Origin: Gemmatimonadota bacterium
Lineage (GTDB): Bacteria; Gemmatimonadota; Gemmatimonadetes; Palauibacterales; Palauibacteraceae
Length of the DNA: 64,000 nt
Reading direction: 5' to 3'
Assembly: GCA_046758745.1 (NCBI GenBank)
Contig: JBHIAV010000005.1
Span: 16,291 to 80,290, forward strand
The notes beneath the pieces were generated by a model, which was not told where the DNA came from, searched no databases, and worked only from the letters and a program-made list of their open reading frames with translations. Positions within the stretch are counted from its first letter, which is position 1. The number at the start of each line of letters is the position of its first letter. A program made the position numbers and the translations under genes. Shown piece after piece: positions 7,748 to 27,784 of the stretch.

Positions 7748-7815
7748 CCGGTGGCCCCCGCGTCGACCCTACCGCGTTCACGTCGCTGCGCCTCACGTCG
7801 GAGTCCCGTCCTGTT

Positions 7816-8085: not shown

Positions 8086-8095
8086 GCCGGACTCC

Positions 8096-10521: not shown

Positions 10522-10543
10522 GCGATCGTACCTCTCTCCGTTG

Positions 10544-11224: not shown

Positions 11225-11309
11225 GCCCTCTCCCCTTTTCAGTCGCGATCGAGGCGGGGCGCCGCGCGTCGGACGAAAGCCCGAGATGCGCGGCGTCCCC
11301 GGCCGAAGC

Positions 11310-12161: not shown

Positions 12162-12207
12162 CCCTTGCCTCCGAAGAAAGAGCCTCCGACTCTCGGCAGA
12201 GCCGTTC

Positions 12208-13776
12208 TCACACCATGACCGCCTGCGCCTCCTCCTCCCGGCGCGCCCGCCGCTGCGCTCGCGATACCGCCAGCAGACCGAGGCCGCCGGTGAGCAGCAC
12301 GGCCAACACGGGCGCCGCGTACCGGACGGTGGAGGCGGGTTCCTCCAGGTACACATAGTACCATCCGCTCACCGATCCCCGCACGGCCGTCTCCCCGCTG
12401 GAGCCATCCCACGCGAAGAACGCCACCGGGATGGCGACACCCTCCTGGAAGGCGAGCGCCCCTTCCGTCTTTGTCACCAGGGCACGCCGGAAGTGCACGC
12501 GCCACCGGCCGTCATCGTACGCGGCGGAGCCGCCCACTCCCTCGCCGTCCATCGGCTGGAGCTGGCCGAGCCCCCGGGCCCAGGCCTCGCCGACCCCACC
12601 CTCGCTCCCCCAGCTCCAAAGGTACACGGGCCTCCGTCCGTCGCCCATCAGGAAGTACGGCCTCTCCATCCCTTCCGGGATCGTCGGCGGGAACTGCACG
12701 AGAAGCCCGTCGGGGAGATGCGGCAGCTCGGTGACGGTCGTATCCCGATCGTCGGCGAAGAGCGTGGCCGTGATCTTTTCCTGCCACTCGTCCCACGAGG
12801 GATCCGGACTGCGTGAGGGGTCCGACCAGCTCACGCGCATCGCCAGCTCCGTCCCGTCGTGCGCCGCCTGCACCCACACCCCATCCACCGCGGGTGCCAA
12901 CTGGCGGGGCTTCTGGATCACCTGACCGACGAGGGGGATGTAGAAGGTCTCCATCTTGTCCCACCCCTGCGCGTCGGGACCGTCCGGGAGAGGGCCCTCG
13001 AACCGGCGCGCGACGATTACGTCCCGCACGCGGGGCTCGCTCTCCGGCGCGAGGCTGCGGACGTAGCGCGCCAGGTCCCACAGCTCCTTGTCGGACACCA
13101 CCCCGGAGGCGAGGGCGTCGCTGTACGCCGGCATCGGCGTGCCGTCCAGCCCGGTGAGCATCCGAGTGTGGATCGCCTCGACCGTGAAGCCGCCGTTGAA
13201 GCCCCAGGGCTCGGTGAGATCGGCCGCGCGGATGGGCAGCTTCCGCCAATCCTCGAGCGTCGGCGCCGATTGTCCGTTGCCACGGCCGGAGTCGCCATGG
13301 CACTTCCAGCACTCGAGCGCCCGGTAGGCGTCCCTCCCGGACTCGAGGGCGTCCGCCCCACCGCCCGGGTCGCTCCCCAGATCGGCCGGCTGCGGGGCGG
13401 CCCCCTGGAAGAAGCGCGAGAAGCTCTTGATGTAGGCGATCACGTCCCGTCGCTCGGCCTCGCCGAGGTTCGGCCACGCCGGCATCACGGTGCCCGGCAT
13501 GCCGTTGCGCAACACGTTGAGGAGATCCTCATCGGTCGGGAGCTCCCCGCTCGCCGTGGTGCGAATCTGGTAGCGTGCCTGCACGAAGTCGCGCGGCCGC
13601 GGGAGCATCCGATCGGCGGCCGGACCGTCGCCGCGTCCCTCGGCGCCGTGACACTCCACGCACCACTTCTCGTACAGCGCCCTCCCCCGCTCCGCGTCCT
13701 GCGCCCCGCAGGGCGCGGCCAGGGCGAGGAGGGTGAGGGCGGCCGCGCATGCGGGCCCGACGCCGCGCGAGCTCAA
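12208..13776 (-). CDS. Diheme c-type cytochrome fused to an ethylbenzene-dehydrogenase-gamma-like (DOMON) domain, C-terminal TM anchor
   Basis: CVECH and CWKCH; PRPRDF...GMPGTVMPAW; DOMON-like AAHDGTELAMRVSWSDP...PYFLMGD...VAFFAWDG. TTG start overlaps the upstream stop. Confidence 0.85.
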   Translation of the reverse strand: MSSRGVGPACAAALTLLALAAPCGAQDAERGRALYEKWCVECHGAEGRGDGPAADRMLPRPRDFVQARYQIRTTASGELPTDEDLLNVLRNGMPGTVMPAWPNLGEAERRDVIAYIKSFSRFFQGAAPQPADLGSDPGGGADALESGRDAYRALECWKCHGDSGRGNGQSAPTLEDWRKLPIRAADLTEPWGFNGGFTVEAIHTRMLTGLDGTPMPAYSDALASGVVSDKELWDLARYVRSLAPESEPRVRDVIVARRFEGPLPDGPDAQGWDKMETFYIPLVGQVIQKPRQLAPAVDGVWVQAAHDGTELAMRVSWSDPSRSPDPSWDEWQEKITATLFADDRDTTVTELPHLPDGLLVQFPPTIPEGMERPYFLMGDGRRPVYLWSWGSEGGVGEAWARGLGQLQPMDGEGVGGSAAYDDGRWRVHFRRALVTKTEGALAFQEGVAIPVAFFAWDGSSGETAVRGSVSGWYYVYLEEPASTVRYAAPVLAVLLTGGLGLLAVSRAQRRARREEEAQAVMV

Positions 13777-14579
13777 CTCCCCCCTCCTCCCGCCGCCAGC
13801 TCCCACGTGCGCGGCGTCCATCCCGTCTGGTCGTACAGGTACAGGATCACCGCCCAGATCTCCTCCTCGGCGAGAAGAGACTCCCAAGCCGGCATGGCGG
13901 AGTTCCACGGCGTCCCCTCCCTGGGCAGCCCCGGTCCCCCTTTGGCGATGCGCCAGAAGACATAGCTCTCGGTGAGCTGGGCGATCGTGCCGTTGTCCGT
14001 GAAGTCGGCCGGGACCGGATTGAAGGCGTGGGCGAAGTGCCCCTCGCCGTCCAGGCGATCGCCGTGGCACGGGACGCAATTCTGCACGTAGACCCGCGCG
14101 CCGACCTGCAGGTGCTCCTGCATGGAGCCTTCCGCCCTCAGGGGATTCTCCAGTCCCGCCAGGCGCATCGTCTTCCCGCGGAAGGTGATCTCGTTCGGCG
14201 GAGCCGGATGGATCGAGCGGAGCGCGGCCGGCGCGGCGAAGCTCGGACGCACCTGCCGGTACGCGGCGAACCCGATGAGAAGGGGCAGGACGATGAGCAG
14301 GGCGATCCGTACCCCGCGCCGATCCGGGTCCACCATCACCCCGTGGATCGGCTCCTTGAAGGTCCGCCACCGCTCCTCATCCGCGCTCACGTACAGGAGG
14401 ACGCCGACCAGGGCGGTGAGCATGAACTGCACCACGACCGAGCGGGGCACGGGAGCGCTCGCAGCTCCGAAGAGCGGGGGCAGGTAGGCGATCCCGTAGC
14501 GGAAGAGGAGGTACGAAGCCGCGAGGAGGAGAAGGGCCTGCCAGAACGGGTGCCGGAGGAAGCCGCGGGGATCCGTCAC
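13773..14579 (-). CDS. Membrane-anchored monoheme c-type cytochrome
   Basis: Three N-terminal TM segments, CVPCH, axial Met in SAMPAW. Confidence 0.85.
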   Translation of the reverse strand: MTDPRGFLRHPFWQALLLLAASYLLFRYGIAYLPPLFGAASAPVPRSVVVQFMLTALVGVLLYVSADEERWRTFKEPIHGVMVDPDRRGVRIALLIVLPLLIGFAAYRQVRPSFAAPAALRSIHPAPPNEITFRGKTMRLAGLENPLRAEGSMQEHLQVGARVYVQNCVPCHGDRLDGEGHFAHAFNPVPADFTDNGTIAQLTESYVFWRIAKGGPGLPREGTPWNSAMPAWESLLAEEEIWAVILYLYDQTGWTPRTWELAAGGGGS

Positions 14580-14697: not shown

Positions 14698-15495
14698 TCA
14701 CTTTCGCTCCGACAGGAACTGCACGATCGCCTCGAGCTGCGCAGCCGTAAGCTGCTGGCCGAACGTGGGCGGCATCGTGCCGGCGAACTGCTCGAAGCCC
14801 TGCGCCGTGTCCGCGTTCGGAAAGAGGATGGAACGGCGGATGTAGTCCGGCGCCAGGCGCGCTCCCATCCCGTCGAAGGGGGGACCGAGGGCGCCACCCG
14901 CCCCGTCGAGCAGGTGGCAGGCGAGGCACCCGCTCGCCTCGATGAGCTCGCCCGGGTCCGTAGCGGCCGGCGGCGTCCCGGCTCCACCCTGCGGCGCGGC
15001 GGCCGCCACGCCACCGCTCGCGGGGGCGCCTTCCTCCCCCGCCGTAGCGGCAATGTCATCGGCCGTAACCGTCACCGTCCCGCCCTGGCTCTCGAGGAAG
15101 GCCACCACGGCCCAGATCTGTTCGTTGGAGAGGGTGCGCCGCATGTCCGGCATGATCGGCTGGAAGCCCTCCACGAGGAAGGCCGTCGGCTCGACCAGCG
15201 ACTGATACAGGTACTCCTTGCAGGCGAAGTCAGAACGCCGCGTCGCGCAGTTCGAGCCCACGACGCCCAGGAGGTCGGGAGCGCGGGTGCCGAGCCCGTG
15301 GCACGTCGTGCAGCCCCCGGCCCCCAGGTAGATCTCCTCTCCCGCCGCCGCCAGCTCCTCCGCGGTCACGTCCGCCCCGAGCACGAGCTCGGTCGGGACC
15401 TCCGACTCCAGCTGAGGGATGATGTTCGCCACGGTGGTGTACACGGCCAGGGTGCCGACCACCGTCAGAACGATCGCCACGTTCGTGCGCCACAC
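14698..15495 (-). CDS. Diheme c-type cytochrome
   Basis: N-terminal anchor, CTTCH and CLACH, YLYQSLVEP...IMP and YIRRSILFP...TMP; GAGGA RBS before GTG 15495. Confidence 0.85.
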   Translation of the reverse strand: MWRTNVAIVLTVVGTLAVYTTVANIIPQLESEVPTELVLGADVTAEELAAAGEEIYLGAGGCTTCHGLGTRAPDLLGVVGSNCATRRSDFACKEYLYQSLVEPTAFLVEGFQPIMPDMRRTLSNEQIWAVVAFLESQGGTVTVTADDIAATAGEEGAPASGGVAAAAPQGGAGTPPAATDPGELIEASGCLACHLLDGAGGALGPPFDGMGARLAPDYIRRSILFPNADTAQGFEQFAGTMPPTFGQQLTAAQLEAIVQFLSERK

Positions 15496-15505
15496 GTCCG
15501 GTTCC

Positions 15506-17338
15506 TCAGCTCCCCGTCGCCAGCTCGGGGGCGAGACCGCCGGGTCCGCCCGCCCGCGCGGTGGCGAGCACCGGCTTCTCCACCAGGCCCCCGATCCAGA
15601 AGATGAGCGCCACCAGTCCAAGGAAGATGAGCACGCACACGCTGATGATCACCGACGCCGGCCCGAGCGCCGGGGTGACGGCCTGCGGACTCGTGTCCCG
15701 GACGACCTCATAGATGTGCCAGTGCTGCCGGATGCCGCTCCGCGCGAAGCCCATCAGCCCCATCAGCCAGGTGAAGGTGACCGCGAGGATGAAGAGCGCG
15801 TACTGCGAGCGGGCCGGCATGTGGCCCCAGCGGATGGCGCCGCGCGATTCCGCCCCGCGCATGAGCGCGATGTCGATGAAGACGACGAAGAGGATCGCGG
15901 CCAGCACGGCGAGCACCTGGTAGACGCTGAACCCGATGCGCACGATCGCGGTGACGAAGTAGCCGTACACACCGTAGAAGACGACCACCGCCGTCGCGGC
16001 GGCCAGCGCGATCCCCTGCGTGATCGTCCCCGTCCGTGCCCAGCTCACCACCGGGGTCTTGTTGGCCCGCCGGTACAGCATGAAGGAAAGGAAGGTGGTG
16101 AGGATCATCAGGTTCACCGCGGTGTTCTTGGCGCTCATCACGCCGAGCACGCCGAGGAAGGGATGGTGCGTCCCTCCCATCGCCGCGATCTCGTCGCGGG
16201 TCGCGATCATGGTGTGCGGGGTAGCCCACACGATCACGCCGAGGACCAGGAGGAGGAGCATCCACTTCACGTACTTCGTGAACCGCTCGGCCCCCGGGAT
16301 CCTCCCCATGCCGATCCACAGGTAGTAGTTGCCGGCCAAGAAGAGCACCCCGATGAGGAAGGCCTGGACGATCCACAGCCAGCTCATGAAGCCGCCCATC
16401 ATCGTGATGCCGAGCTGCTCGTTGAACTCGTAGACCTCCCGGCCCAGGTAGTAGCCGGCGAACGGGAGGACGATGAGGGCTCCGATGGCGATGAAGTTCC
16501 CCACGTAGCCCATCCAGTCGTAGTGCGCCCGCTCCTCGTCGGTACGGGCGGCGAGGAAGCGGTAGGCGGCGTACGCGCCCACAATGGCCCCGCCGAACAC
16601 CACGTTGGCGATGAGCCGGTGGATGTTGATCGGCATCCAGGTGGCGTTGGCGATGGCGCTCCACGTCTGCACGGTGGCCGGGGCCGTGTCCGGTGTCGCC
16701 TCGGCGGGCGGGCTCATCATGTAGGTGAGCCATCCGTTGGCGATGAACATCACCACCGTGCCCCACACGTTGAGCAGGATCCCGAGGCTCCAGTGCCACG
16801 CCTTGGCCCGCCCCGCCTTCCACCGCTCCCACCCGTAGTAGTACAGGTACAGGGTGAACGACTCCAGGAAGAAGAGCCCGACGTACAGCCACATCGAGGG
16901 TCCGAAGACGGCCGTCATGTATGCCCAGAAGACGGGGTACAGGGTCGAGAGGAAGAAGACGAGGATGGCGCCCCAGATCGCCGTGGCGCTGTAGGCGATG
17001 AGGAGGAGGCGGGTGAACTCCCTGGCCAGCCGGTCGTATCTGTCGTCCTTGCCGAAGATCCCGATCGCCTCCACCACCACCGCGAACATCGGAACCCCGA
17101 GCACGAAGGCCGCGAACATGAGGTGCACCTCGGCCGCGATCCACACCGCTCCGCGCGCGCCCACGATCGGGAAGTCTCCGTACGCCCGGACCGCCTCCTG
17201 CGCGACGAGCGGATCGGCCGCGAGCAGCAGCCCGGCGGCGATCGCCCCTCCGACGCCGAAGGCGCGTCTCCCGACCCTCCTACCAGCCGCAGCGGGCGCC
17301 CGCACGCGCCGCGTGCCGAGGCGGGGGGATCTTCTCAC
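15506..17338 (-). CDS. Cytochrome bd-like oxidase subunit I (CydA superfamily, Nitrospira/OR-N-like, no Q-loop)
   Basis: EVHLMFAAFVLGVP (H19 equivalent), FFLES...YYGW, NIHRLIAN (H186 equivalent), GIRQHW (RQPW equivalent); about 13 TM helices. Confidence 0.82.
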   Translation of the reverse strand: MRRSPRLGTRRVRAPAAAGRRVGRRAFGVGGAIAAGLLLAADPLVAQEAVRAYGDFPIVGARGAVWIAAEVHLMFAAFVLGVPMFAVVVEAIGIFGKDDRYDRLAREFTRLLLIAYSATAIWGAILVFFLSTLYPVFWAYMTAVFGPSMWLYVGLFFLESFTLYLYYYGWERWKAGRAKAWHWSLGILLNVWGTVVMFIANGWLTYMMSPPAEATPDTAPATVQTWSAIANATWMPINIHRLIANVVFGGAIVGAYAAYRFLAARTDEERAHYDWMGYVGNFIAIGALIVLPFAGYYLGREVYEFNEQLGITMMGGFMSWLWIVQAFLIGVLFLAGNYYLWIGMGRIPGAERFTKYVKWMLLLLVLGVIVWATPHTMIATRDEIAAMGGTHHPFLGVLGVMSAKNTAVNLMILTTFLSFMLYRRANKTPVVSWARTGTITQGIALAAATAVVVFYGVYGYFVTAIVRIGFSVYQVLAVLAAILFVVFIDIALMRGAESRGAIRWGHMPARSQYALFILAVTFTWLMGLMGFARSGIRQHWHIYEVVRDTSPQAVTPALGPASVIISVCVLIFLGLVALIFWIGGLVEKPVLATARAGGPGGLAPELATGS

Positions 17339-18696
17339 GATCGGTCCCTGCCTCCGGCGAAGAACGGGAGGCGACGCGAGAAGTCGATCGGCATCTCCGA
17401 GCGAATCCTCTCCATGAGCTCCGGCGTGACGCGGGCGTGCCCCTTCCGGCGGGCGTACGCCTCGACCCGGCTCACCACGACACCCCGCACGAAGGAGGGG
17501 ATCCGGGCGAGCCGCGCCTCGGCCTCCGGCGTCCACTCCAGCTCCGGGAGCTGCGCCATGCCGTACAGCACCGCGCGCCGAGGCTCCACCACCGGGAGGT
17601 CGCCGGCGGGCTCGTACGCGCAGGAGGGATCCTCGGCCAGGAAGTCCCCGTCCCGCGCGAAGGCGCGTGCCCGGCACCCGCCGCACACCTTCCGGTACTC
17701 GCACCTTCCGCACTTCCCCCCCAGCTCCCCCTCGCGCAGGAGGCGGAAGAGGGGAGCCGAGCGCCACACCTCCGCGAACCCCTCCGACCGCAGGTCGCCG
17801 GCCACGGCCGGAAGGTAAGGGCAGGGCGTAAGCTTCCCCTCGGGAGTGATCCGGCAGTACTGCACGCCGCATGGGCAGCGGGTGCCGTAGTTGAGGAGAG
17901 GCGACTCGGGGTCGGACTCCCATGCGTGACGCATGATCTGCGGCTGGCACTTCGAGCGGACGAGCATCCGGCCCCGGTATCTCCGCTCCAGGATGACGAG
18001 GCCGCGCAGGACCTCCTCGTTCTCGACCGGAGCGAGGCCCCGCATCCCCTCACCCCGACCGGTCTGGACCAGGAAGTACACGTTGAACGACACGGCCCCC
18101 GCATCGGCGGCCCACTCGGCCAGTGCGGGTATCTCGTCCCGATTCCCTCGCGTGACCGTCGTCTGGACGATGAAGTCGAGGCGCGCATTCCTCAGCCGTT
18201 CCACCGCCCCCAGCGTCTCCTCCAGCGCTCCGGATCCGTGCCGGAAGCGGTCGTGGTAGCGAGGGTTCAGCGAGTCGACGCTGATCGCCGCCCCGCTCAC
18301 TCCGGCCTCCTGCAGGGACTCGATTCGCTCCACGGTCAGCCGCGTGCCGTTCGTCCCGACGACCACCGTGGCGCCCCCCTTGTGGGCGTGTGAGGCGATC
18401 GCCTCCAGGTCGTCGCGGAGGAGGGGCTCGCCCCCGCTGAGGATCAGCAGGGGAGCGGGGTTCAAGGCGAGGATCTCTTCGATGATGCGGAAGCACTCCC
18501 CCGTCGTGAGCTCTCCCTCCGCGGAGTGCCACGTTCCGGCGGAGATATAGCAATGCGCGCACGCGAGATTGCAGCGACGGGTGACGTTCCACGCCACCAC
18601 GTGGGGAAGGTAGCCGTCGCCGGCAGCCGGCCGTGCCCCCGGACGCGCCGCCACGAGGGCCTCCGGCCACTCGGGTGCGCCGGCCGGCCCGCTCAC
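17335..18696 (-). CDS. Radical SAM/SPASM enzyme, AhbC/AhbD/NirJ-like, with C-terminal PCP-reductase-type helical domain
   Basis: WNVTRRCNLACAHCY, SGGEPLLR, GTNGT, HDRFR; SPASM CPCG..C..PCPY..GKCGRC..CGGCRARA..DPSC; tail WTPEAEARLARIPSFVRG. Confidence 0.85.
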   Translation of the reverse strand: MSGPAGAPEWPEALVAARPGARPAAGDGYLPHVVAWNVTRRCNLACAHCYISAGTWHSAEGELTTGECFRIIEEILALNPAPLLILSGGEPLLRDDLEAIASHAHKGGATVVVGTNGTRLTVERIESLQEAGVSGAAISVDSLNPRYHDRFRHGSGALEETLGAVERLRNARLDFIVQTTVTRGNRDEIPALAEWAADAGAVSFNVYFLVQTGRGEGMRGLAPVENEEVLRGLVILERRYRGRMLVRSKCQPQIMRHAWESDPESPLLNYGTRCPCGVQYCRITPEGKLTPCPYLPAVAGDLRSEGFAEVWRSAPLFRLLREGELGGKCGRCEYRKVCGGCRARAFARDGDFLAEDPSCAYEPAGDLPVVEPRRAVLYGMAQLPELEWTPEAEARLARIPSFVRGVVVSRVEAYARRKGHARVTPELMERIRSEMPIDFSRRLPFFAGGRDRS

Positions 18697-18808
18697 GTCG
18701 CCCTGGACACCCGCACCGGAGGCACCGCGACCCTACCCGGCCGCGCGCCGGGGTGGCTCCATGACGCGGAGGGCCCGGCACGGCTGTGTGGGATCGGAGC
18801 TCCCCTCA

Positions 18809-20818
18809 CTACTCGCCCATCGGCCCGGGAACGTCGGCCTCCTTCCTCATCAGCTCCTCGACGGCGCGCCTCGCCTCCTCGGGGGTGGCCGTCTTGAAGT
18901 CCACCGGACAGCGCTCCACCTGACGCTCGATGTCGCGGATCGGGCAGCGCGTTACCCCCGCCGCCTTCGCCTCATCGATGAACTTCCGCATCTCGGGACT
19001 CACCCCATCCAGTCCCGCCGCCTCCGCCCGCGCCTGCTTCGCCTTGAGCTCGTTGAACATCACGAGCATGGTGTCCATGTCGAACTCGTCGGCTTCGATC
19101 ATCGCCTGCTTGTTGTCGTCCATCACCATCGTGGTGACACGCCACATGCCGTGGCGCCGGGCAAAGCGCTCCACCGTGTTGCGGGCGAGAGGGCGCGCGA
19201 TGAGCGGGACCTGGCGGAGACGGTCGTACGCCTCGTGCGTCCACACGACCGGGTCTTCCTCGGTCCGCTCGCGCACGGTGGCGTGTCCGGAATAGGGGCA
19301 CTTCGTCTCCACGGGTCGGGGCGACTCGAAGACGTCCGCGTCGTGCGTCTCCACGACGGTGCGCTTCATCGCCTCCTCCGCCTTCACCTCGGCCAGGGCG
19401 AGCTCCTCGGCATCACCGACACCCATGATGAGCTGCATGTGGGTGGGGAGTAGCCTGCGGATCGCTCGGTCCAGCCACTCGTTCGTGACGGTCGGCAGTT
19501 CGGGCGGCGTGTGCTCCACATTCTCGAGAACGAACTCCTCGACCGCCTTTCGGGCGATCCCGAGCGCAAAGGGAGGGACCCGAAGGATTCGCACCTCGGC
19601 CTCCGGCGCCCACTCCAGACCGGTCTCGCCGTCTTCCTCGATCCATGGGATCTCGTCGGGTCGCACGTCCGTCGTCCCGATGAGGAGCACGCTGCACGGC
19701 GCGAGGCGGATCAGGTTCTCGGCCTGCGACCCCATCTCCGTGCCGTCGACGCGGTGCGCCCCGTGTCGGGCCAGCACCAGCAGAGTCGGCTCGACCTCCT
19801 CGGCCCACTGGAGCACCACCTGGAAGGGCTTCCCGATGAGGATCTGCGTCGCGAGCTTGACGTCCGGGTACTCCTTCGCCATCGCCTCGGCCCGCTTGAG
19901 GTTGGCCTGGCAGAGACGGAGCAGACCCTTGTCGATGATGTTGTTGTGCAGCTCCTCCTGCTCCTCGAACTTGAAGACCTTCGAGGCCTGCACGGAGAGG
20001 ACGTCCTTGATGTTGTTGAAGACGACGTGGTGGTACTCGACGTCGAAGGCGCTGCACACGAAGAGCTTGGCCCCGAACTCTCGCGCCATCTCCAGCGCCA
20101 TCCGCATCGCCTTGTAGCAGTAAGACGATCCATCAATGCACACCATCCACCGTCCGCCCTGTAGCGGCCGGTCGTCACGCACGATGAGGACATCCTTGTG
20201 CACCGAACGGACCACGCGGGAGACCACGCCGCCGAGCTGCGAGTAGGGCTGACGTCCGATGCCGTGCGCCCCTATGGCCAGGAGGTCGTAGCGTCGCCCG
20301 GAAGAGCCGGCGAGCTTCCGCTCCGAGTCTTCTTCCTCCGCCACGAGGCGACCGGTCTCGCTGATCTTCACGTCGCTGCGAACGACGTCGCCGCCGTCGT
20401 ATCGGGCGGCGATGTTCGGATCGAACCCGATGAGGCTCGGGAGCTGGCCGCGGCCCTCGTTCGCCTCCCGGATGATCTCCTCGAAGTTGATCCCCTCGAG
20501 GAGCTGCCGGGTGAGCGGCGCACCCGCCTCCGAGCAGCGCTGGGCGACCCGGTCCAGAAAGCTGTCCGCGATGAGCTGGAGACCCTTCTCGATCAGCTTG
20601 TCGTGAATCTTCCGCTGTCGCTTGATCTCCTCGGAAGTCTGGAAGCGAGCGGGGAGCCCGCTCTCCAGCTGGCGGAAGCGAATGTCGTGGAGCCGCGCTG
20701 CGTACACGTGGTTCGCCGTGATGCGGCCGCCCGACCGCGAGCACAGCTCGATCGCGCGCTCGAGGGCCCAATCAGAGTGGACCGAGTTGTCCACGGGAAC
20801 GAGCAGCTCACGGTACAT
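18809..20818 (-). CDS. Multidomain universal stress protein (2x USP + 2x PCP-reductase-type domain, CP motifs)
   Basis: MYRELLVPVDNS...DLLAIGAHG...LGGV; MVCIDGS...LLVLARHG...MGSQAENLIRLAPCSVL; WAPEAEVRILRVP; WTHEAYDRLRQVP. Confidence 0.85.
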   Translation of the reverse strand: MYRELLVPVDNSVHSDWALERAIELCSRSGGRITANHVYAARLHDIRFRQLESGLPARFQTSEEIKRQRKIHDKLIEKGLQLIADSFLDRVAQRCSEAGAPLTRQLLEGINFEEIIREANEGRGQLPSLIGFDPNIAARYDGGDVVRSDVKISETGRLVAEEEDSERKLAGSSGRRYDLLAIGAHGIGRQPYSQLGGVVSRVVRSVHKDVLIVRDDRPLQGGRWMVCIDGSSYCYKAMRMALEMAREFGAKLFVCSAFDVEYHHVVFNNIKDVLSVQASKVFKFEEQEELHNNIIDKGLLRLCQANLKRAEAMAKEYPDVKLATQILIGKPFQVVLQWAEEVEPTLLVLARHGAHRVDGTEMGSQAENLIRLAPCSVLLIGTTDVRPDEIPWIEEDGETGLEWAPEAEVRILRVPPFALGIARKAVEEFVLENVEHTPPELPTVTNEWLDRAIRRLLPTHMQLIMGVGDAEELALAEVKAEEAMKRTVVETHDADVFESPRPVETKCPYSGHATVRERTEEDPVVWTHEAYDRLRQVPLIARPLARNTVERFARRHGMWRVTTMVMDDNKQAMIEADEFDMDTMLVMFNELKAKQARAEAAGLDGVSPEMRKFIDEAKAAGVTRCPIRDIERQVERCPVDFKTATPEEARRAVEELMRKEADVPGPMGE

Positions 20819-21133
20819 CGACACCTCGAATCCAGGGGTGCCGCCGCCCAAGTGGGAGCGCGGGAGGCGCCGGGCGTGCGGGAGGGGCGAGCCGCAGGGC
20901 CGGTGGTGACGCGGCTCCGCCCGCGAAGCAGCGCGCGACGGTCTCGGAGCCGGATCTCCACCTCAGCCCCACGAGCCTCTCGACCCGTCGTTCCCGAGGC
21001 CCACTTCGATTCCGGCGTAGGGCGCGCGCCGCGCGCGGCGGGCCCGCCTCTATCGGTGAGACGGGCCCCCGCCCGTCCCGAATTCGACTCGAAAGGAGCG
21101 CCTCTCCCCTGACCCGGGAGTGCGCTCGGCGTG

Positions 21134-21164
21134 AGTATATAGCCGCGGCGGCGACAGCTGTCAA
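21134..21164 (-). promoter_or_regulatory. Sigma-70-type promoter for the USP-oxidase operon
   Basis: Minus strand reads TTGACA-17 nt-TATATACT, about 310 nt upstream of the USP start. Confidence 0.65.
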
Positions 21165-21259
21165 ACGCCGCCAAACAGGCGCTCTCGAGGCGCGGACGAC
21201 CCCCCGATCCACCGCTCTCCGCGCCCGAGGAACGCTCTCGCCGGCGGGTTCGGATGGGC

Positions 21260-22012
21260 TCACGCAGCCGCTCCGGCGAGCCGGCGGGCGAGGGTCGGCG
21301 CCGCCGCGAGAACAAGCCCCGCCCCCAGCAGGACGACGGCGATGGGCCCGATCCACGAGGCGAGGGGACCGACCCCGCCGGTACCCGTCAGCGCCCGGGT
21401 GACCGCAGGGGACCCCGCCGAGACAGCGAGCAGGCCGTCGTGGAGCGGGCCGAATGGGCTGAGGTGTTCCACCGTCTCGGCCCATGTTCCGGGCCCGGCC
21501 GCGCGGAACACCCCGCTCAGGTGGAGCGCGAAGAGCGACGCCGCCGCGCACGCGAGGGCGCCCTCGGCGAGCGAGCGCACGAGCGCCGCGATGACACTTC
21601 CGAGGAGGTTTCCGAAGAGAAGCGCGAGCAGCAGCCCCGCCGCGGCGCCGAGGCCCGGCGCCCACGAGGCTCCGGAGACCGCGAGCAGGATGAGGAGGAG
21701 GGGCAGGAGCTGGAGCGCGTCCAGGGCCGCCGCCGCGATCGTACGCTCGGCGAGCCAGGCGCGCTCGCCATACCCGGTCAGCCTCACTTTCTCCACCCAG
21801 CCGGACGCCCCCTCTCGCACGAGCGGGATGCAGCTCCCAAAGGTGGCGAAGAAGACGATGAAGACGCTGAACACGGCCGCCCGGTGCGGTGCGGCCGCCG
21901 GACTCGCCGCCACCGGGAGCAGAAGCGCGACGGGGACGATCACGTTCCAGGCGAAGAGTCGGCGACGCGTGAGGGCGATCCGCCACTCCAGGGCCCACAC
22001 GCGCCCGATCAC
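21260..22012 (-). CDS. ABC-2-type transporter permease
   Basis: About 6 TM helices, LVREGASG..EKVRLT, HLSPFG; follows an ABC ATPase. Confidence 0.7.
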   Translation of the reverse strand: MIGRVWALEWRIALTRRRLFAWNVIVPVALLLPVAASPAAAPHRAAVFSVFIVFFATFGSCIPLVREGASGWVEKVRLTGYGERAWLAERTIAAAALDALQLLPLLLILLAVSGASWAPGLGAAAGLLLALLFGNLLGSVIAALVRSLAEGALACAAASLFALHLSGVFRAAGPGTWAETVEHLSPFGPLHDGLLAVSAGSPAVTRALTGTGGVGPLASWIGPIAVVLLGAGLVLAAAPTLARRLAGAAA

Positions 22013-22043
22013 GGGTGCTCCCTCCCCCGACCCTCTCTGTCCC

Positions 22044-23060
22044 TCACGGGCCGCCGCGAGCGGAGAGACCCGTCCCCCGCAGCGCCGTCTCGTCGGGGGC
22101 CGGGGCCGCCCCGTCGAGGGGAACCCCGGCCAGCTCCAGGAAGACGTCGGCAAGGTTCGGCTCGTGCACCCGAATGGAGCGGGGCTCGCACCCGGCCTCG
22201 AGCAGGCGTGCGCACAGCTCCGGGAGCGCGGCGCCCCCCGCGGGTGAAGCGAAGCGTGCTCCCTGCGGATACAGTGCCAGCGTCCGCACCTGCGGCTGCG
22301 GTTCGAAGCTCCTGCTCGGCATCTTTCCCGACACCTCGATCACGGTCTCCTTCGCCAGCCCGGCGATGAGGTCGCGGGGAGGGCCGTCCGCGATGAGCCT
22401 TCCGCCGTGCAGGAAAGCGACCCGGCTGCACGCCGTCTCCACGAACGCCGGATCGTTGGAGGCCACCAGGGCCGCCGCTCCTCTCGACGCCGCATCGGCC
22501 ATGGCCGCTCGCAGCGCCGCCACGCCGAGGGGATCCAGCCCGAGCGTGGGCTCGTCGAGCAGGAGGAGGTCGGCTGATGCGGCCACCGCCTCTGCGAGGG
22601 CGAGACGGCGGCGCATCCCGTGCGAGTAGATCGATACCCTTTCCACAGCGCGGTCGGCGAGGCCGAAGTCGCGCAGCGCGCTATCCAGCGCACCGGCCGC
22701 TGCCTCGCCCCCGTGTCCCCTGAGGCCGAGCAGACGGAGAACGTTCTCGCGCCCCGGGAGGGATTCCTGAAACGGAGTGCGGTCGAAGACGACGGCAACC
22801 CGCCGGCGGAGGTGCGACGCCGAGTCGGAGGGCTCGTTCGGGAAGAGGCGTGCCGAGCCCTCGGCCGGAGGGAGCACCCCGGCTACGATGCGGAGAAGGG
22901 TCGTCTTCCCGGAGCCGTTCGGCCCCATCACTCCGAGGACTTCCCCGGCCGCCAGCTGGAGCGTCAGCCCCACCAGAACAGGCGGCCCGTCGGCGTAGCG
23001 GTGGCCCAGCCCGCACAGGGCCAGGACGGGTCCCACCGGGACGGACGGACCTGTCGTCAT
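22044..23060 (-). CDS. ABC transporter ATP-binding protein (exporter type)
   Basis: GPNGSGKTT, YSHGMRRRL, LLLDEPTLGLD, EPNLADVFLELAG. Confidence 0.88.
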   Translation of the reverse strand: MTTGPSVPVGPVLALCGLGHRYADGPPVLVGLTLQLAAGEVLGVMGPNGSGKTTLLRIVAGVLPPAEGSARLFPNEPSDSASHLRRRVAVVFDRTPFQESLPGRENVLRLLGLRGHGGEAAAGALDSALRDFGLADRAVERVSIYSHGMRRRLALAEAVAASADLLLLDEPTLGLDPLGVAALRAAMADAASRGAAALVASNDPAFVETACSRVAFLHGGRLIADGPPRDLIAGLAKETVIEVSGKMPSRSFEPQPQVRTLALYPQGARFASPAGGAALPELCARLLEAGCEPRSIRVHEPNLADVFLELAGVPLDGAAPAPDETALRGTGLSARGGP

Positions 23061-23416
23061 GGGACGAGCGTGTGACCGTCCTCGTCATACACGGTGATCG
23101 CGTCCACCGGACAGGCGGCGCACGCCCGCAGGAGACGCTCTCGCCCCACCGCCTCCGGAGTCGTCAGCACCGCGATCTCTTCCGCGTCCAGCGCGAACGC
23201 CGCCGGCGCTTCGGCGATGCACTCCGCGAAGCCGACGCACAGGCCCCGGTCGATCGCCACGCGAAGCCTCCCGACCCGGCGGTCGCACCGCGCATCCGCG
23301 ATGGCTTCCGGCATCCGGCCCGCAGCGAGGACCGGCGACTGTCCCGGCGCGGCCTCCTCCCGCCGGGCAGCCGCCGACCCGGCACCGCGAGGGGGAGGGG
23401 GGACGGATGCCGTCAC
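23057..23416 (-). CDS. Single-cluster ferredoxin (probably [3Fe-4S])
   Basis: IDRGLCVGFAECIAEAPAAF...ACAACPVDAI; second Cys position is Phe. Start is 23416 (GTG) or 23314 (ATG). Confidence 0.8.
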   Translation of the reverse strand: MTASVPPPPRGAGSAAARREEAAPGQSPVLAAGRMPEAIADARCDRRVGRLRVAIDRGLCVGFAECIAEAPAAFALDAEEIAVLTTPEAVGRERLLRACAACPVDAITVYDEDGHTLVP

Positions 23417-23862
23417 ATCCCCTCGAGGCCGAGCTCCCGACGTGCCCGATCCATGATGGCGGGAGTGATCTCGGCGATGCCCCGCTCCCTCGCATAGTCG
23501 ATGTAGATGCGCTTTACCATCCCGCGCACGAAGGAGGGGACGGCCCCCAGCCGTTCGATCGCCTCCACGCTCCAGCGCACCGTGGCGGCCGACGGCTCGG
23601 GCGGTGCGGTATCCGCGAACGCCTTCTCCCGGCCCTCCGCCAGAGAGCCCCGCACCATCTCGAAGGGCTGTTCGGGCACCGCACGCCCCCCGATCCGGAC
23701 CCCGAGGGAGGCCACGAGCTGCGTCTCCATGGGGTTGGTCAGCAGTCCGACCCGGTGGTCGCACGACGGGCAGCGGAAGGCGGCCGCCAGCGTGCCGTCC
23801 CCCGGGAGGTCCCGCTCCTCGAACACCATCTGCTCGTCGCACTCCACGCACAGGAACTTCAC
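23413..23862 (-). CDS. Zn-ribbon (CxxC...CxxC) protein with C-terminal PCP-reductase-type domain
   Basis: MKFLCVECDEQM...FRCPSC...TNPMETQLV; WSVEAIERLGAVPSFVRGMV...YARERG..EIT. Confidence 0.8.
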   Translation of the reverse strand: MKFLCVECDEQMVFEERDLPGDGTLAAAFRCPSCDHRVGLLTNPMETQLVASLGVRIGGRAVPEQPFEMVRGSLAEGREKAFADTAPPEPSAATVRWSVEAIERLGAVPSFVRGMVKRIYIDYARERGIAEITPAIMDRARRELGLEGM

Positions 23863-24746
23863 GCCGCCTCCTCGCCCCCCAGGAGGGTCGCGGCGATCGT
23901 CGCCAGTGCCCTGCCCGCCGGACGATCGAGGGCGCCGAGCGGGTCTCCCTTCTCCGCCAGCGCGGCGCTCTCGGGATCAAGCGGGACGCGCCCGAGCAGC
24001 GGGATTCCGAACAGCCCGGCCAGAGACTCACCGGCATCGCCTCGGAAAAGAGGCCGCACCGCTCCACACTCCGGGCAGGCGTACCCGGACATGTTCTCGA
24101 TCACACCCAGGGCGGGCATGCCCCGCTCCCGGGCCTCGCGGAGGGAACGCTCCACGCTGGCGCGGGACGCGTCCGAGGGGATGGTGACGACCAATGTCCC
24201 CGAGAGGTCGGGAACGAGTTCCGCGAGGTCGATCATGCGCCCCGTACCGGGCGGAAGATCGATCAGAAGGAGATCCAGCTTCCCCCACTCCACGTCCCCC
24301 AGGAACTCGCGCAGTGCCCCCTGCTCCTGCGCTCCCCGCCACACGAAGCTCTCCGAGGCGGGCTCCTTCCAGGCGAGAGGTCGTCCCGCCTCCAGAAGCA
24401 GCTCCATCGACATGACCCGCACTCCCGCCGGGCTCACCGCCGGCACCACCGCCGATTGCTCCACGCGGAGCTCTCCCGGCGACACCCCCGACAGGCGGGC
24501 GGCCGTCGGGCCGTGAAGGTCGGCGTCGAGCAACCCGACCCGGGCCCCTGCGCGAGCGGATTGGGCGGCCAGCAGGGCTGCCACGAAGCTCTTCCCGACC
24601 CCGCCCTTTCCGCTCATCACGGCCACACAGCGTTCCACCAGCTCGAGGCGCCGGCGCACTTTTTCGCGCTGCGCGGTCACCTGAGCGACGAGGTCGGACC
24701 GGTCCCGGCCGAGGAGCTCCGAGTAGGTGCGGAAACCGATCGTCAC
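23859..24746 (-). CDS. Mrp/NBP35 (ApbC) Fe-S cluster carrier ATPase
   Basis: MSGKGGVGKS, LDADLHGP, VWRG, WGKLDLLLIDLPPGTG, IENMSGYACPECG, LGRVPLDP. Confidence 0.88.
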   Translation of the reverse strand: MTIGFRTYSELLGRDRSDLVAQVTAQREKVRRRLELVERCVAVMSGKGGVGKSFVAALLAAQSARAGARVGLLDADLHGPTAARLSGVSPGELRVEQSAVVPAVSPAGVRVMSMELLLEAGRPLAWKEPASESFVWRGAQEQGALREFLGDVEWGKLDLLLIDLPPGTGRMIDLAELVPDLSGTLVVTIPSDASRASVERSLREARERGMPALGVIENMSGYACPECGAVRPLFRGDAGESLAGLFGIPLLGRVPLDPESAALAEKGDPLGALDRPAGRALATIAATLLGGEEAA

Positions 24747-25210
24747 AGGTCCCAGCCGGCGCGGGCCAGCATCCACAGGTTGATGAGCACGACGACCACG
24801 GCCGTCACGTAGAGCGCCGCCGGGAGGCGGGCCTCCGCAACGGGCAGGAAGCCCCGCCGGACGAGGGCGGGGAGGCGGAGCGCGTGAAGGAGCCACACCG
24901 CCCGCGCGAACCACGGATTCTGCCAGCGCCACAACCCCCAGAAGACGACGGCCACGATGGCCGCGCCGAGGAGGAGCCACACCCAGACCGCACCGCGCTC
25001 GGCCGGCAGGACGCCGGCCCGAGCCGCGGCGATGACGGCCGCCTCGTACAGGAGTCCGACGTGCAGATAGACAAACGCCGCCTGCCGGAACTTGACGGCC
25101 CGCGCCGGCGCGTGAGGCAACCTTCGCGCCCGGCGAGCCGCCGGCTCGGCCGAACCGGGCCCGTCCGCCACCGCGCCTTCCGGACTCTCCGCCGCTCGGC
25201 TCCCCGCCAT
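24743..25210 (-). CDS. Hypothetical 4-TM membrane protein
   Basis: KFRQAAFVYLHVGLLYE...NLWMLARAGWDL; stop overlaps the Mrp start. Confidence 0.65.
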   Translation of the reverse strand: MAGSRAAESPEGAVADGPGSAEPAARRARRLPHAPARAVKFRQAAFVYLHVGLLYEAAVIAAARAGVLPAERGAVWVWLLLGAAIVAVVFWGLWRWQNPWFARAVWLLHALRLPALVRRGFLPVAEARLPAALYVTAVVVVLINLWMLARAGWDL

Positions 25211-25422
25211 ACTCTCTTCCGTCTGGGGTCTTTCGCTCACCTTACCGGTACAGCTTGCCGGGGCGCCCGCTGTTCCGCAACAGCGGCTGTCCCGCCGCGC
25301 CGCCGCGCGCTAGTTTTCTGGGTGTAGGGTGCCGCGAAGCGGCGCTTTCTCTGCCTGGGGTGCGGCGAGCCGGCACGTGGCAGTGCACACGCGTCCCGCG
25401 GCATGGAACATGAGGAGGCGAC

Positions 25423-25695: not shown

Positions 25696-26328
25696 GTGAG
25701 CGACGAGGTCGGCGCCGGCGGGAGTCCCGCCTGGCTCCTCGGCGCGGCGGCGCTCTTCCTCCTGCTCCTGGCGGCTCTCGTCGCGACCTCCCTGTGGCGC
25801 CGCGAACCTCCGGCCTTTCCCATCACCCACCGGACGCCTCAAGAGGCGGGAGACTCGCTCGGCCGAGGCCTCGTGACGCTCGACGCACGGGACCGGCGCG
25901 CCTGGGTGCGCTTCGACTTCTCCCGCTCCGCGGTCGTGGAGAGCGGGGAGCCGGCGGGCTGGGATGTGGCCGCTCGCCGCCATCGATTGATCGTCAACGG
26001 TGGCCAGGGCTTCGCCGGGCACGGAGGCGTGATCGAGGTCACCGGCACGCCGTACGAGGCGGTGGGCGAGGCACCCGACGAGGGGTACACGGGATCCAGG
26101 GTCACCGCGGGAGGCGACTCGGTCAACTCCGTCTTCGACGGCTGGTACCGCTACGGCTTCTTCTCTCACCTGCTCGAGCCGAAGCCGGCCACGTACATCG
26201 TGCGAACGGCAGACGGAAGATATGCGAAGCTGCGCATCCTCAGCTACTACTGTCCGGGAGCGGAGCCCGGCTGCCTCACCTTCGAGTACAGCTACCAGGG
26301 AGCGGGCGGAACGAGGCTGGCGCCCTAG
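25696..26328 (+). CDS. HmuY-family heme-binding protein with N-terminal TM anchor
   Basis: WVRFDFS, GWDVAARR..LIVNGG, WYRY..SHLLEP, YIVRTADGRYAKLRILSYYC. Confidence 0.8.
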   Translation: MSDEVGAGGSPAWLLGAAALFLLLLAALVATSLWRREPPAFPITHRTPQEAGDSLGRGLVTLDARDRRAWVRFDFSRSAVVESGEPAGWDVAARRHRLIVNGGQGFAGHGGVIEVTGTPYEAVGEAPDEGYTGSRVTAGGDSVNSVFDGWYRYGFFSHLLEPKPATYIVRTADGRYAKLRILSYYCPGAEPGCLTFEYSYQGAGGTRLAP

Positions 26329-26831
26329 TCGTCCGACAGCTCCCTGATGCGAGTCACCAGGCGCGAGGTCGAGCGTTCCGGCACAAGCGGGAGCACGTGC
26401 ACCTCGCCACCCGCCGCGAGCACGTCGGGGCCGCCCACGATCTCCTGTGGTCCGTAGTCGCTCCCTTTTACAAGCACGTCGGGGAGCAGCTTCCGGATCA
26501 GCTCGAGCGGCGTGTCCTCGTCGAACACGGTGACAGCGTCCACGCAGCGGAGCGCGGCGAGGATCACCGCCCGGTCCCCCGCCGTCTGGAACGGCCTGCC
26601 TCTTCCCTTGACCCGGCGCGCCGAGGCATCCGAGTTCACTGCCACCACGAGTCGATCACCCAGGCGGCGAGCCTCCTCGAGACACCGGATGTGCCCGGCG
26701 TGCAGGAGGTCGAACACCCCGTTCGTGAAGACGAGCCGGTGGTCGCGAGGCCTTCCGTACGTCGCGCACAGCGCCGGCCGGGCGAGCACGCGCCCCATGC
26801 CCGGTACGCGGCGTTCCTCGCCGCCCCTCAC
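26325..26831 (-). CDS. rfaE2: D-glycero-beta-D-manno-heptose 1-phosphate adenylyltransferase (HldE domain II)
   Basis: VFTNGVFDLLHAGH, AVNSDAS..KG..RP, FDEDTP, PDVLVKGSDY, STS. Confidence 0.9.
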   Translation of the reverse strand: MRGGEERRVPGMGRVLARPALCATYGRPRDHRLVFTNGVFDLLHAGHIRCLEEARRLGDRLVVAVNSDASARRVKGRGRPFQTAGDRAVILAALRCVDAVTVFDEDTPLELIRKLLPDVLVKGSDYGPQEIVGGPDVLAAGGEVHVLPLVPERSTSRLVTRIRELSDD

Positions 26832-27784
26832 CTCGGGTCCCTCGCACGGCGCCCGAGCAGCTCTCCCGCTCCTCGCTCGAGGAGTCGTTCGGCGAGCGCC
26901 CTCCCGATCGCCGCCGGCTCGAACGCCGAGCCGGAGAGCGCATCTCGGATGGCGACCCGCCCGTCGGGCGAGAAGACGGCGGCGGCGGCGCGCAGGCGCG
27001 GCCCCTCCACCTCCGCGAATGCCCCAACCGGGATCTGGCACCCCCCTCCGAGCGCTGCCAGCAGGCTCCGCTCGCACTCGACCGCGGTCCTCGCTTCCCG
27101 GCTCTCGATCGCCGCCAGCAGGCGAGCCGACTCTTCGTCCGAGGCCCGTGCCTCCACGCCGAGGGCGCCCTGCCCCACGGCCGGGAGCCATTCCGGCGGT
27201 TCGAGCCGGGCGAGATGCCGGTGCGGGAGGCCAAGCCGCCGCAGTCCGGCCGCCGCCAGGATGATCGCGTCGTACTCCCCGTCCCGACACTTGCGAAGGC
27301 GGGTTTCGACGTTCCCCCTGATGCTCCGAACCTCGCAGTCCGGCCGCCGGGCCAAGAGCTGCGCGACGCGCCTCAGGGAGGAGGTGCCGAGCACGCTACC
27401 TGCCGGAAGATCCTCGAGTCCTCCCCTTCCCTCCCGGCGGATGAGCAGGTCGGCTGCGTCCGAGCGCTCTGGAACGCATGCCAGGCAGAGCCCCGCCGCC
27501 AGGTCGGTCGGGAGATCTTTGAGGGAGTGCACCGCGGCGTCGATCTCCCCCCGCAGGATCCGCCTCTCCAGCTCGGCGGTGAAGAGACCCTTGCCGCCGA
27601 TCTCGGGAAGCGGTCGATCGATCGATCGATCCCCCTCGGTCTCCACGCCGACGATCTCCACGACGAGACCGGGCCAGGCCGTCCGCACCCGCTCGGCGAC
27701 GACCTCGCTCTGGGCCATAGCGAGCCGCGACCGGCGCGAGCCGATGATGAACCGGGAACGGGAGAGCTCTGGCATGGCCGCCAT
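26828..27784 (-). CDS. hemC: Hydroxymethylbilane synthase (porphobilinogen deaminase)
   Basis: GSRRSRLAMAQ, TEGD, GGKGLFT, AVHSLKDLP, GTSSLRR, IRGNV, PAVGQGAL, GGCQIP. Confidence 0.95.
   Translation of the reverse strand: MAAMPELSRSRFIIGSRRSRLAMAQSEVVAERVRTAWPGLVVEIVGVETEGDRSIDRPLPEIGGKGLFTAELERRILRGEIDAAVHSLKDLPTDLAAGLCLACVPERSDAADLLIRREGRGGLEDLPAGSVLGTSSLRRVAQLLARRPDCEVRSIRGNVETRLRKCRDGEYDAIILAAAGLRRLGLPHRHLARLEPPEWLPAVGQGALGVEARASDEESARLLAAIESREARTAVECERSLLAALGGGCQIPVGAFAEVEGPRLRAAAAVFSPDGRVAIRDALSGSAFEPAAIGRALAERLLERGAGELLGRRARDPR

Follow-up and report, generated by a model that had tools for sequence, protein, structure and literature searches.

In a stretch of 64,000 nucleotides from a Gemmatimonadota bacterium (assembly GCA_046758745.1, contig JBHIAV010000005.1, positions 16,291 to 80,290 of the forward strand; hereafter the window, with a G+C content of 70%, from a genome of 3.08 Mb that is 87% complete), three otherwise unrelated neighbouring proteins, a radical SAM enzyme, a universal stress protein (USP) and a zinc-ribbon protein (ZnR), carry copies of PCP_red, the small domain that ends the BchB and ChlB subunits of protochlorophyllide reductase (DPOR). 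The most secure new statement of this analysis is that these three proteins, together with an Mrp-type Fe-S cluster carrier and a ferredoxin, constitute a conserved accessory half of the operon of a cytochrome bd-like oxidase, OR-N-type by its features, with which the domain co-occurs in two phyla. An earlier note on this DNA, made from the letters alone, had described the repeated domain as a candidate docking code and had overlooked the operon context of the bd-like oxidase with its three cytochromes c. This set of helper genes probably makes or delivers the haem cofactor of the oxidase.

Between 12.2 and 25.2 kb, the minus strand of the window holds one run of tightly spaced or overlapping genes in which Mrp/NBP35, ZnR-PCP_red, ferredoxin, an ABC transporter, USP-PCP_red x2 and an AhbD/NirJ-like radical SAM-PCP_red protein are followed on the same strand by the cytochrome bd-like subunit I and three cytochromes c. 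The features of this block, including a small membrane protein at its start, are as follows.

24743 to 25240, minus strand: small membrane protein of 165 residues, first gene of the block, with no Pfam or NCBIfam match.
23859 to 24746, minus strand: Mrp/NBP35-type P-loop Fe-S cluster carrier ATPase (Pfam ParA/NUBPL, E 1.2e-63).
23413 to 23862, minus strand: ZnR-PCP_red, 149 residues (Pfam PCP_red at residues 97-141, E 6.7e-13, 48.9 bits).
23057 to 23314, minus strand: small single-cluster ferredoxin of about 85 residues, start inferred (Pfam Fer4_13, E 4.6e-08; Fer4_15, E 1.1e-06).
22044 to 23060, minus strand: ABC transporter ATPase, an optional insert (Pfam ABC_tran, E 8.9e-28; NCBIfam drrA subfamily, below cut-off).
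21260 to 22153, minus strand: ABC-2 type permease, an optional insert (Pfam ABC2_membrane, E 1.8e-08).
18809 to 20851, minus strand: USP-PCP_red x2, 680 residues (Pfam Usp, E 7e-34 in three stretches; PCP_red, E 2e-14 in two stretches).
17335 to 18696, minus strand: AhbD/NirJ-like radical SAM/SPASM/PCP_red protein, 453 residues (Pfam Radical_SAM, E 1.4e-28; SPASM, E 2.1e-07; PCP_red, E 3.4e-15).
15506 to 17330, minus strand: cytochrome bd-like subunit I, CydA-like and OR-N-type by features, start uncertain (Pfam Cyt_bd_oxida_I, E 2.4e-22).
14698 to 15621, minus strand: dihaem cytochrome c (Pfam Cytochrome_CBB3 and Cytochrom_C, two stretches).
13773 to 14579, minus strand: membrane-anchored cytochrome c (Pfam Cytochrome_CBB3, E 1.8e-09).
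12208 to 13800, minus strand: cytochrome c-EB_dh fusion with a haem b domain like the gamma subunit of type II DMSO reductases, start uncertain (Pfam Cytochrom_C, E 5.2e-21; EB_dh, E 1.7e-14).

The PCP_red profile of Pfam (PF08369, gathering score 32.5 bits) matches all three host proteins, with E-values from 7e-13 to 3e-15 per protein, and the four copies lie where the earlier note had placed them. A six-frame search of the host genome yields exactly four matches, all in this cluster and within 6.2 kb of one another (17404-17535, 19112-19243, 19520-19612 and 23440-23574). In the radical SAM protein the domain occupies residues 388-431 (56.3 bits; about 17389-17541), and in the USP protein the better of two stretches spans residues 537-580 (53.7 bits for the whole protein). 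The other stretch, copy a, scores 23.6 bits by itself, under the Pfam cut-off and over Pfam positions 1-31 of 45, because an insertion of at least 12 residues splits it; a profile purpose-built from these domains spans it fully (residues 412-468, E 1e-15).

The identification of the domain as PCP_red, made in the note, extends to the predicted fold of the ZnR and radical SAM proteins. In the AlphaFold2 model of ZnR-PCP_red, a beta domain (residues 1-60) and three helices (99-143, predicted local distance difference test score, pLDDT, above 90) are separated by a linker (67-92) with pLDDT below 50, such that the protein is predicted to consist of two folded beads on a disordered tether. Foldseek matches this model to 2kru, 2l09 and 2ynm_D, superposing it on the stand-alone PCP_red protein 2kru with a root-mean-square deviation (rmsd) of 1.5 A over 53 columns (template modelling score 0.76 by target) and on ChlB in 2ynm_D with an rmsd of 1.4 A over 48 columns, which identifies the predicted bundle as the three-helix fold of 2kru. 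The model of the radical SAM protein (pLDDT 84.2, predicted template modelling score 0.78) likewise places PCP_red helices at residues 390-397, 401-417 and 425-434. Conversely, a family profile built on ZnR-PCP_red matches BchB/ChlB C-termini (2xdq_B, residues 452-510, E 8.7e-10) as well as the stand-alone proteins 2kru (E 8e-08) and 2l09, and the motif W-x-x-E-A...P-x-F-V-R-G is common to BchB and to every copy type found here. The NCBIfam models of BchB match the window proteins by their last 55-70 model positions only, and no Oxidored_nitro (PF00148) match occurs in the host genome at its 87% completeness, so that these proteins do not belong to DPOR BchB/ChlB, a subunit with an N-terminal nitrogenase-like Oxidored_nitro domain and the partners BchN and BchL, and the absence of bch/chl genes, noted before for the window, holds genome-wide. 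Degraded DPOR genes were rejected as an explanation on the same grounds.

A tree of 73 PCP_red domains over 55 columns resolves each copy type as its own starred clade within the Gemmatimonadota, with many forks left open, and unites copy a of the USP proteins from two phyla in one clade (support 97/93, 17 rows). The copies are therefore old and individually maintained, and recent tandem duplication was rejected in view of their separate lineages. The family of ZnR-PCP_red is large (1144 clusters at 50% identity, E <= 0.001), and annotation calls the ribbon of its Nitrospirota relatives rubredoxin-like. As leads only, the ESM Atlas lists similar USP-PCP_red clusters for Nitrospinota and Pseudomonadota, and PCP_red clusters for Nitrospirota and Chloroflexota.

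The arrangement of these genes is conserved. With the window proteins as tblastn queries, we examined 84 loci of the Gemmatimonadota type (82 distinct), of which 4 came from relatives and 80 from a relatives scan comprising the best 80 of at least 574 species genomes, nearly all Gemmatimonadota, with a close relative of the window's small protein. In 84/84 loci, as far as each reaches, the order Mrp, ZnR, ferredoxin, (ABC pair), USP, radical SAM, bd-like, cytochrome c, cytochrome c, cytochrome c-EB_dh is constant. Limited by the ends of the loci, Mrp and the ferredoxin are each found in 81, USP in 76, the radical SAM gene in 64 and the bd-like gene in 60; the ferredoxin comes after ZnR-PCP_red in 81/84, and wherever a locus is long enough, the radical SAM gene is followed by the bd-like gene. 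The ABC pair is optional (ATPase in 32/84, permease in 31/84), and a homologue of the 165-residue membrane protein lies upstream of Mrp in 15/84 by tblastn. When 151 genomes were sampled evenly from the Gemmatimonadota, PCP_red was found in 46 (E <= 1e-6), 41 of which had at least three matches. The clustering proposed in the note is thus conserved, and chance is excluded as its cause by the confinement of all 4/4 genomic copies to 6.2 kb together with the recurrence of the same arrangement in many genomes.

Presence of the domain follows presence of the oxidase in two phyla. Among 41 order-level relatives, PCP_red and the bd-like gene occur together in 23 and are both absent from 17; the remaining genome (G029), which is fragmented, has PCP_red alone. 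All 23 genomes with the bd-like gene thus carry PCP_red. The second phylum was that of G041, a metagenome-assembled genome (MAG) labelled Vicinamibacteria, Acidobacteriota; in its sample of 151 genomes, both are present in 8, a lone PCP_red in one small open reading frame is present in 1 (G164) and neither is present in 142, which gives PCP_red in 9 and the bd-like gene in 8, tallies that include the unpublished genome G091. The 8 genomes with the bd-like gene are exactly those with at least two PCP_red matches. Loci from six genomes of this phylum show a rearranged order, in which the bd-like gene, three cytochromes c and USP-PCP_red are followed at some remove by Mrp, ZnR-PCP_red and radical SAM-PCP_red, at 35-57% identity. 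A set that is complete yet rearranged argues for function over inheritance alone. Since PCP_red tracks the oxidase almost perfectly in both phyla and the cluster is the upstream half of the oxidase operon, the gene set is better named an oxidase accessory or maturation module than the general haem synthesis and trafficking complex that the note had envisaged.

Several observations made in the course of this census concern individual genomes. The contig that carries the block in G041 (C280, locus L045) encodes a counterpart of the window's small protein at 69% identity; the other bd-like gene of this MAG (C402) is 57% identical, like those of its phylum-mates, which suggests that C280 contaminates the MAG from a Gemmatimonadota genome or was transferred recently, and a locus labelled Rokuibacteriota (L070) behaves in the same way. 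In relative G011, a USP-PCP_red pair of its own lies about 5 kb from the second bd-like copy. Among Gemmatimonadota genomes with few PCP_red matches, G291 (C1, 3098431-3120986), G323 (C1, 1566553-1588961) and G267 (C91, 10367-28220) have two each, about 18-22 kb apart and in frames of 527-688 residues, and G279 has a single match in a frame of 143 residues. These are probably BchB and BchZ of phototrophic members of the phylum; if so, COR subunit Z also carries PCP_red.

OR-N reductases are distinguished by a CydA-like four-helix core with the ligand His19, the lack of a quinol-binding Q-loop and operons with alternative donors, and the oxidase itself shows several features that point to this type. 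The Cyt_bd_oxida_I match covers profile positions 4-240 of 418 only, about 13 hydrophobic segments are predicted, His26 lies in an EVHL context and three cytochrome c genes follow downstream. By these features the gene encodes a putative OR-N-type cytochrome bd-like oxygen reductase. Two sources describe OR-N oxidases as uncharacterised (10.1101/2021.01.16.426971; PMC10839748), and the second presents the conserved OR-N-type bd-like oxidases as putative terminal oxidases in organisms that oxidise nitrite, Nitrospinota among them (PMC10839748). The present loci place putative OR-N-type bd-like genes in Gemmatimonadota and Acidobacteriota as well.

The radical SAM protein bears on what the module may act upon. 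Its top NCBIfam models, each matched over the full model length, are NirJ2 (TIGR04055, 292.9 bits) and AhbD (TIGR04545, 286.5 bits), compared to 125.8 bits for the peptide maturase MftC and 105.3 bits for PqqE. The cysteines of its CxxxCxxC motif (C42, C46 and C49) are invariant and those of the SPASM domain are conserved, so that it has both the motif and the SPASM domain expected of AhbD/NirJ2. The host genome encodes ChdC and ferrochelatase, that is, a coproporphyrin-dependent route, and according to a passage in a 2026 review (PMC13564367), AhbD is present in organisms with this route, as the proposed O2-independent coproheme decarboxylase. A second AhbD-like paralogue lies on contig C51 (locus L100, 213-2821); it has 400 residues and no PCP_red, scores 303.7 bits on TIGR04545, shares 29% identity with the window enzyme and converges on a gene for a CgoX/HemY-like FAD oxidase. 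This paralogue is probably the housekeeping O2-independent coproheme decarboxylase, and a housekeeping AhbD role for the window enzyme was rejected given the CgoX-like neighbour of the second copy, which instead marks the window enzyme as a diverged paralogue reserved for the oxidase operon. The probable substrate of the window enzyme is an iron tetrapyrrole, and the tetrapyrrole link drawn in the note is to this extent plausible. Foldseek returns generic SPASM enzymes for the model of this protein, with no AhbD or NirJ structure among the matches listed, and thus gives no clue to the substrate.

At its C-terminus (window 17335-17400), the radical SAM protein bears a nearly invariant tail, M-P-V/I-D-F-S-x-R-x-P-F-F, with low pLDDT. 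A conserved C-P-V-D-F motif lies near the end of the USP protein (window 18809-18900), and the two may represent a common short linear motif.

The remaining proteins of the module have the following features. Mrp has a ParA/NUBPL domain, a deviant Walker A motif of the form GKGGxGK[ST] (GKGGVGKS) and the CxxC motif of a bridging cluster (CPEC), as in cluster carriers; its best NCBIfam model is MrpORP (217.5 bits, cut-off 450), followed by ApbC (128.1 bits, cut-off 348), and it misses both cut-offs. The probable start of its gene is the GTG at 24746, overlapped by the TGA stop of the membrane protein gene, and the open frame extends to 24980. ZnR-PCP_red comprises an N-terminal zinc-ribbon or rubredoxin-like domain with four cysteines (C5, C8, C31 and C34, invariant in 36 sequences), the linker and the C-terminal PCP_red (about 23428-23580). 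USP-PCP_red x2 comprises tandem USP domains, PCP_red copies a (about 19448-19618) and b (about 19097-19249), and a C-terminal stretch of 100 residues with conserved cysteines, including the motifs KCP and RCPIRD...CPVDF. The nucleotide-binding motif of USP domains (PF00582) is G-2x-G-9x-G[ST]; the translation has a G-2x-G-9x-G-G variant in domain 1 and a looser variant in domain 2, and nucleotide binding is predicted. The protein with the EB_dh domain scores 102.5 bits on the NCBIfam model DMSO_red_II_gam, below its cut-off.

Support for an adaptor role of PCP_red, and with it for the note's notion of an interaction tag, is indirect and comes from gene overlap, fusions and complex prediction. 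The stop of the Mrp gene and the start of ZnR-PCP_red overlap by 4 nt, here and in 69/81 loci. USP-PCP_red x2 and radical SAM-PCP_red form one open reading frame of 1134 residues in a Gemmatimonadota MAG (L036, 11715-15122), the only fusion among the 63 loci with both genes. Among database proteins, an Mrp core is fused to PCP_red in P0122 and the C-terminal part of Mrp to a zinc ribbon in P0185. In P0182 and P0255, a single chain combines USP with five PCP_red copies and with rubredoxin-like (RUBY_RBDX) domains, one or two in number. When the Mrp dimer was modelled together with ZnR-PCP_red, the prediction passed weakly, with a score of 0.59 compared to 0.00 for the best of three controls, agreement between runs in at least 79% of contacts and a partner pLDDT of at least 67. 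Of 80 solved complexes, 58 attain the mark used, as do 2 of 110 mismatched pairs, and passes at scores of 0.60 or lower comprise only 7 of those 80 complexes and both passing mismatches. Indirectly, these data suggest that a radical SAM enzyme of the tetrapyrrole type is surrounded by proteins that dock through a common module, PCP_red.

Two further USP architectures were seen. A relative with five PCP_red copies occupies a frame of 977 residues (L107, contig C147 of G064), and USP proteins of the Acidobacteriota type have a CxxC...CxxC insert between their PCP_red copies.

Taken together, these results suggest a model in which PCP_red serves for docking and the radical SAM enzyme performs haem-directed chemistry, within a conserved cytoplasmic maturation module of a cytochrome-c-linked OR-N-type bd-like oxidase, a reading to which we give roughly even chances. 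The module would comprise the small membrane protein, the Mrp/NBP35 carrier, ZnR-PCP_red, the ferredoxin, USP-PCP_red x2 and the AhbD/NirJ-like radical SAM-PCP_red protein, all encoded directly upstream of the oxidase and co-inherited with it. The radical SAM enzyme would act on an iron tetrapyrrole, either by O2-free coproheme decarboxylation or by producing a modified haem for the oxidase. We infer the direction of Fe-S and electron flow as follows: Mrp would load the Fe-S clusters of the radical SAM enzyme, and the ferredoxin and the zinc-ribbon or rubredoxin-like protein would shuttle electrons to or from it. The tandem-USP protein may act as a nucleotide-sensing scaffold. PCP_red would be a three-helix adaptor on a flexible tether, through which the proteins could dock on each other or on a common partner, by analogy with the C-terminus of BchB, which is said, in work of 2010 attributed to Muraki and to Brocker and their colleagues, to act in trans across the DPOR tetramer.

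Several results weigh against this model. With about 290 bits, the radical SAM protein falls far under the AhbD and NirJ2 equivalog cut-offs of 500 bits, and its nearest solved folds by Foldseek are the peptide-modifying SPASM enzymes PqqE, SkfB, SuiB and anSME. In G036 the locus has the block without a radical SAM gene. Kin are not independent, so fewer independent events lie behind the co-occurrence than its counts suggest, and these counts include a genome with PCP_red and no bd-like match (G029) and a lone small PCP_red protein without the oxidase (G164). The host genome also has a second bd-like operon (contig C12, locus L101, 4395-9917), the bd-like protein of which is 54% identical to that of the window and which has no Mrp, ZnR, USP or radical SAM genes alongside; the module is thus dispensable in cis for some copies of the oxidase. 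Fusions are rare, being found in 1/63 loci and otherwise in single-member database clusters that may be artefacts of assembly or gene calling, P0123 being visibly frameshifted. The pass of the Mrp/ZnR-PCP_red complex is weak and comes with no reported interface.

Some of these points would be expected if the module were regulatory or structural, with USP-PCP_red and ZnR-PCP_red docking on the cytoplasmic face of the oxidase or on Mrp to switch the oxidase under low oxygen or low energy, and with the radical SAM enzyme modifying a protein subunit. A regulator of one isoform would leave a second bd-like operon without the module, the radical SAM fold resembles solved modifiers of peptides and proteins, and USP domains are nucleotide-binding stress regulators (PF00582). 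USPs beside respiratory operons of Nitrospira marina rise under low O2, according to a passage of PMC8115632. Nevertheless, we consider this explanation unlikely, as family scores strongly favour the tetrapyrrole clade (293 and 287 bits, compared to at most 126 for peptide maturases), an Fe-S carrier and a ferredoxin fit enzyme maturation or electron supply better, and no precursor-peptide gene is seen in the block. Far more improbable is that PCP_red has no common role and is a stable helical filler recruited independently, with the neighbourhood reflecting operon inheritance only. The domain is short, copy a is degenerate by Pfam (23.6 bits) and all functional evidence is indirect, as such a view would have it; yet every copy type persists as a lineage of its own, in one case across two phyla, relatives have up to five copies, the copies of the host genome all lie in one operon and presence of the domain tracks the oxidase.

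PCP_red might instead bind a tetrapyrrole itself, as a carrier or lid. Haem or a precursor would then be handed from copy to copy among the stand-alone protein, the USP scaffold with its several copies and the C-terminus of the enzyme, in the manner of HMA domains, by which copper travels between chaperones and ATPases. The domain ends two kinds of tetrapyrrole enzyme, BchB/ChlB and the AhbD/NirJ-like radical SAM protein, arrays of 2-5 copies per chain and stand-alone copies fit a hand-off, and W-x-x-E-A...P-x-F-V-R-G is retained between BchB and all types here despite unrelated protein partners. One published passage has the C-terminal helix of BchB covering the protochlorophyllide cavity. 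However, sequence alignments reveal no His, Cys, Met or Tyr, the potential axial ligands, conserved across the four copy types, and the conserved residues may be the mere core of a 45-residue bundle. Leu426, which a passage in a review names as a ChlB substrate contact needed for substrate binding, sits about 46 residues before the PCP_red match of 2ynm_D (472-529). On balance we regard a binding role as improbable, to about the same degree as the regulatory one. Somewhat more doubtful still is its extension to a private pathway, in which the ZnR-PCP_red carrier, the USP scaffold with its 2-5 copies and the C-terminal copy of the enzyme would form a tetrapyrrole hand-off module, and the AhbD/NirJ-like enzyme would make a hitherto undescribed modified haem for OR-N oxidases; if true, this would explain both the role of PCP_red in BchB and the source of the active-site haem of OR-N oxidases.

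The surroundings of the operon also contain respiratory and haem-related genes. A caa3-type haem-copper oxidase set (COX2, COX1, COX3 and haem O synthase) and a protein with a CarboxypepD_reg domain follow directly after it (window 6575-12356), and just upstream of the block lie the genes for an HmuY-like haem-binding protein (25696-26328, plus strand) and hemC, porphobilinogen deaminase (26828-27784, minus strand), kept upstream of the block in 26/84 and 23/84 loci, respectively. The second bd-like operon on C12 also holds two cytochromes c and a cytochrome c-EB_dh gene, and a CarboxypepD_reg gene accompanies it as well as the Acidobacteriota loci.

The domain architectures of these PCP_red proteins are already visible in public annotation. 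No description of the proteins was found in the literature searched, supplements and figures being outside that search, so that Figure 1 and the supplementary operon tables of the OR-N preprint may already include these neighbours; its main text (10.1101/2021.01.16.426971), the part searched apart from figures and supplements, contains neither "radical SAM" nor "universal stress" (0 occurrences each). Nor was a functional study of PCP_red found in the literature searched, though the structures 2kru and 2l09 have been solved. A fixed set of helpers provides concrete candidates for how OR-N-type oxidases obtain their cofactors, and PCP_red gains a second, non-photosynthetic context in which its role could be dissected without DPOR.

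Compared with known systems, the oxidase resembles the OR-N family of the preprint by Murali, Gennis and Hemp, to which its features putatively assign it, in its CydA-like N-terminal half with the equivalent of His19. The quinol-loop half of the Pfam model is unmatched, the hydrophobic segments number about 13 and the cytochromes c of the operon are the likely donors. AhbD (haem b synthase), NirJ and AhbC are radical SAM/SPASM enzymes that act on tetrapyrrole side chains, with SAM-dependent decarboxylation or cleavage of the propionates of an iron tetrapyrrole as the hallmark of AhbD/NirJ2; the radical SAM protein resembles them in its CxxxCxxC motif, its Cys-rich SPASM domain, its best NCBIfam models and the coproporphyrin-dependent route of its genome, and differs from them in falling below both equivalog cut-offs, in its extra C-terminal PCP_red and P-V/I-D-F...P-F-F tail, and in its location in an oxidase operon. 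Mrp shares the ParA/NUBPL P-loop core, GKGGVGKS and CPxC with the Mrp/NBP35/ApbC carriers that have partner-specific adaptors, such as MrpORP of Desulfovibrio; in contrast, it scores below the MrpORP and ApbC cut-offs and is translationally coupled to a ZnR-PCP_red gene, and the radical SAM enzyme is its putative client. Finally, the PCP_red copies share PF08369, the three-helix fold (rmsd 1.4-1.5 A) and the P-x-F-V-R-G motif with BchB/ChlB of DPOR (2xdq, 3aek, 2ynm) and with the stand-alone proteins 2kru and 2l09 (Asr4154). Unlike in DPOR, a nitrogenase-like domain is absent here and the genome lacks bch/chl genes; the hosts of the domain are a radical SAM enzyme, a USP and a zinc-ribbon protein, and its context is respiratory, not photosynthetic.

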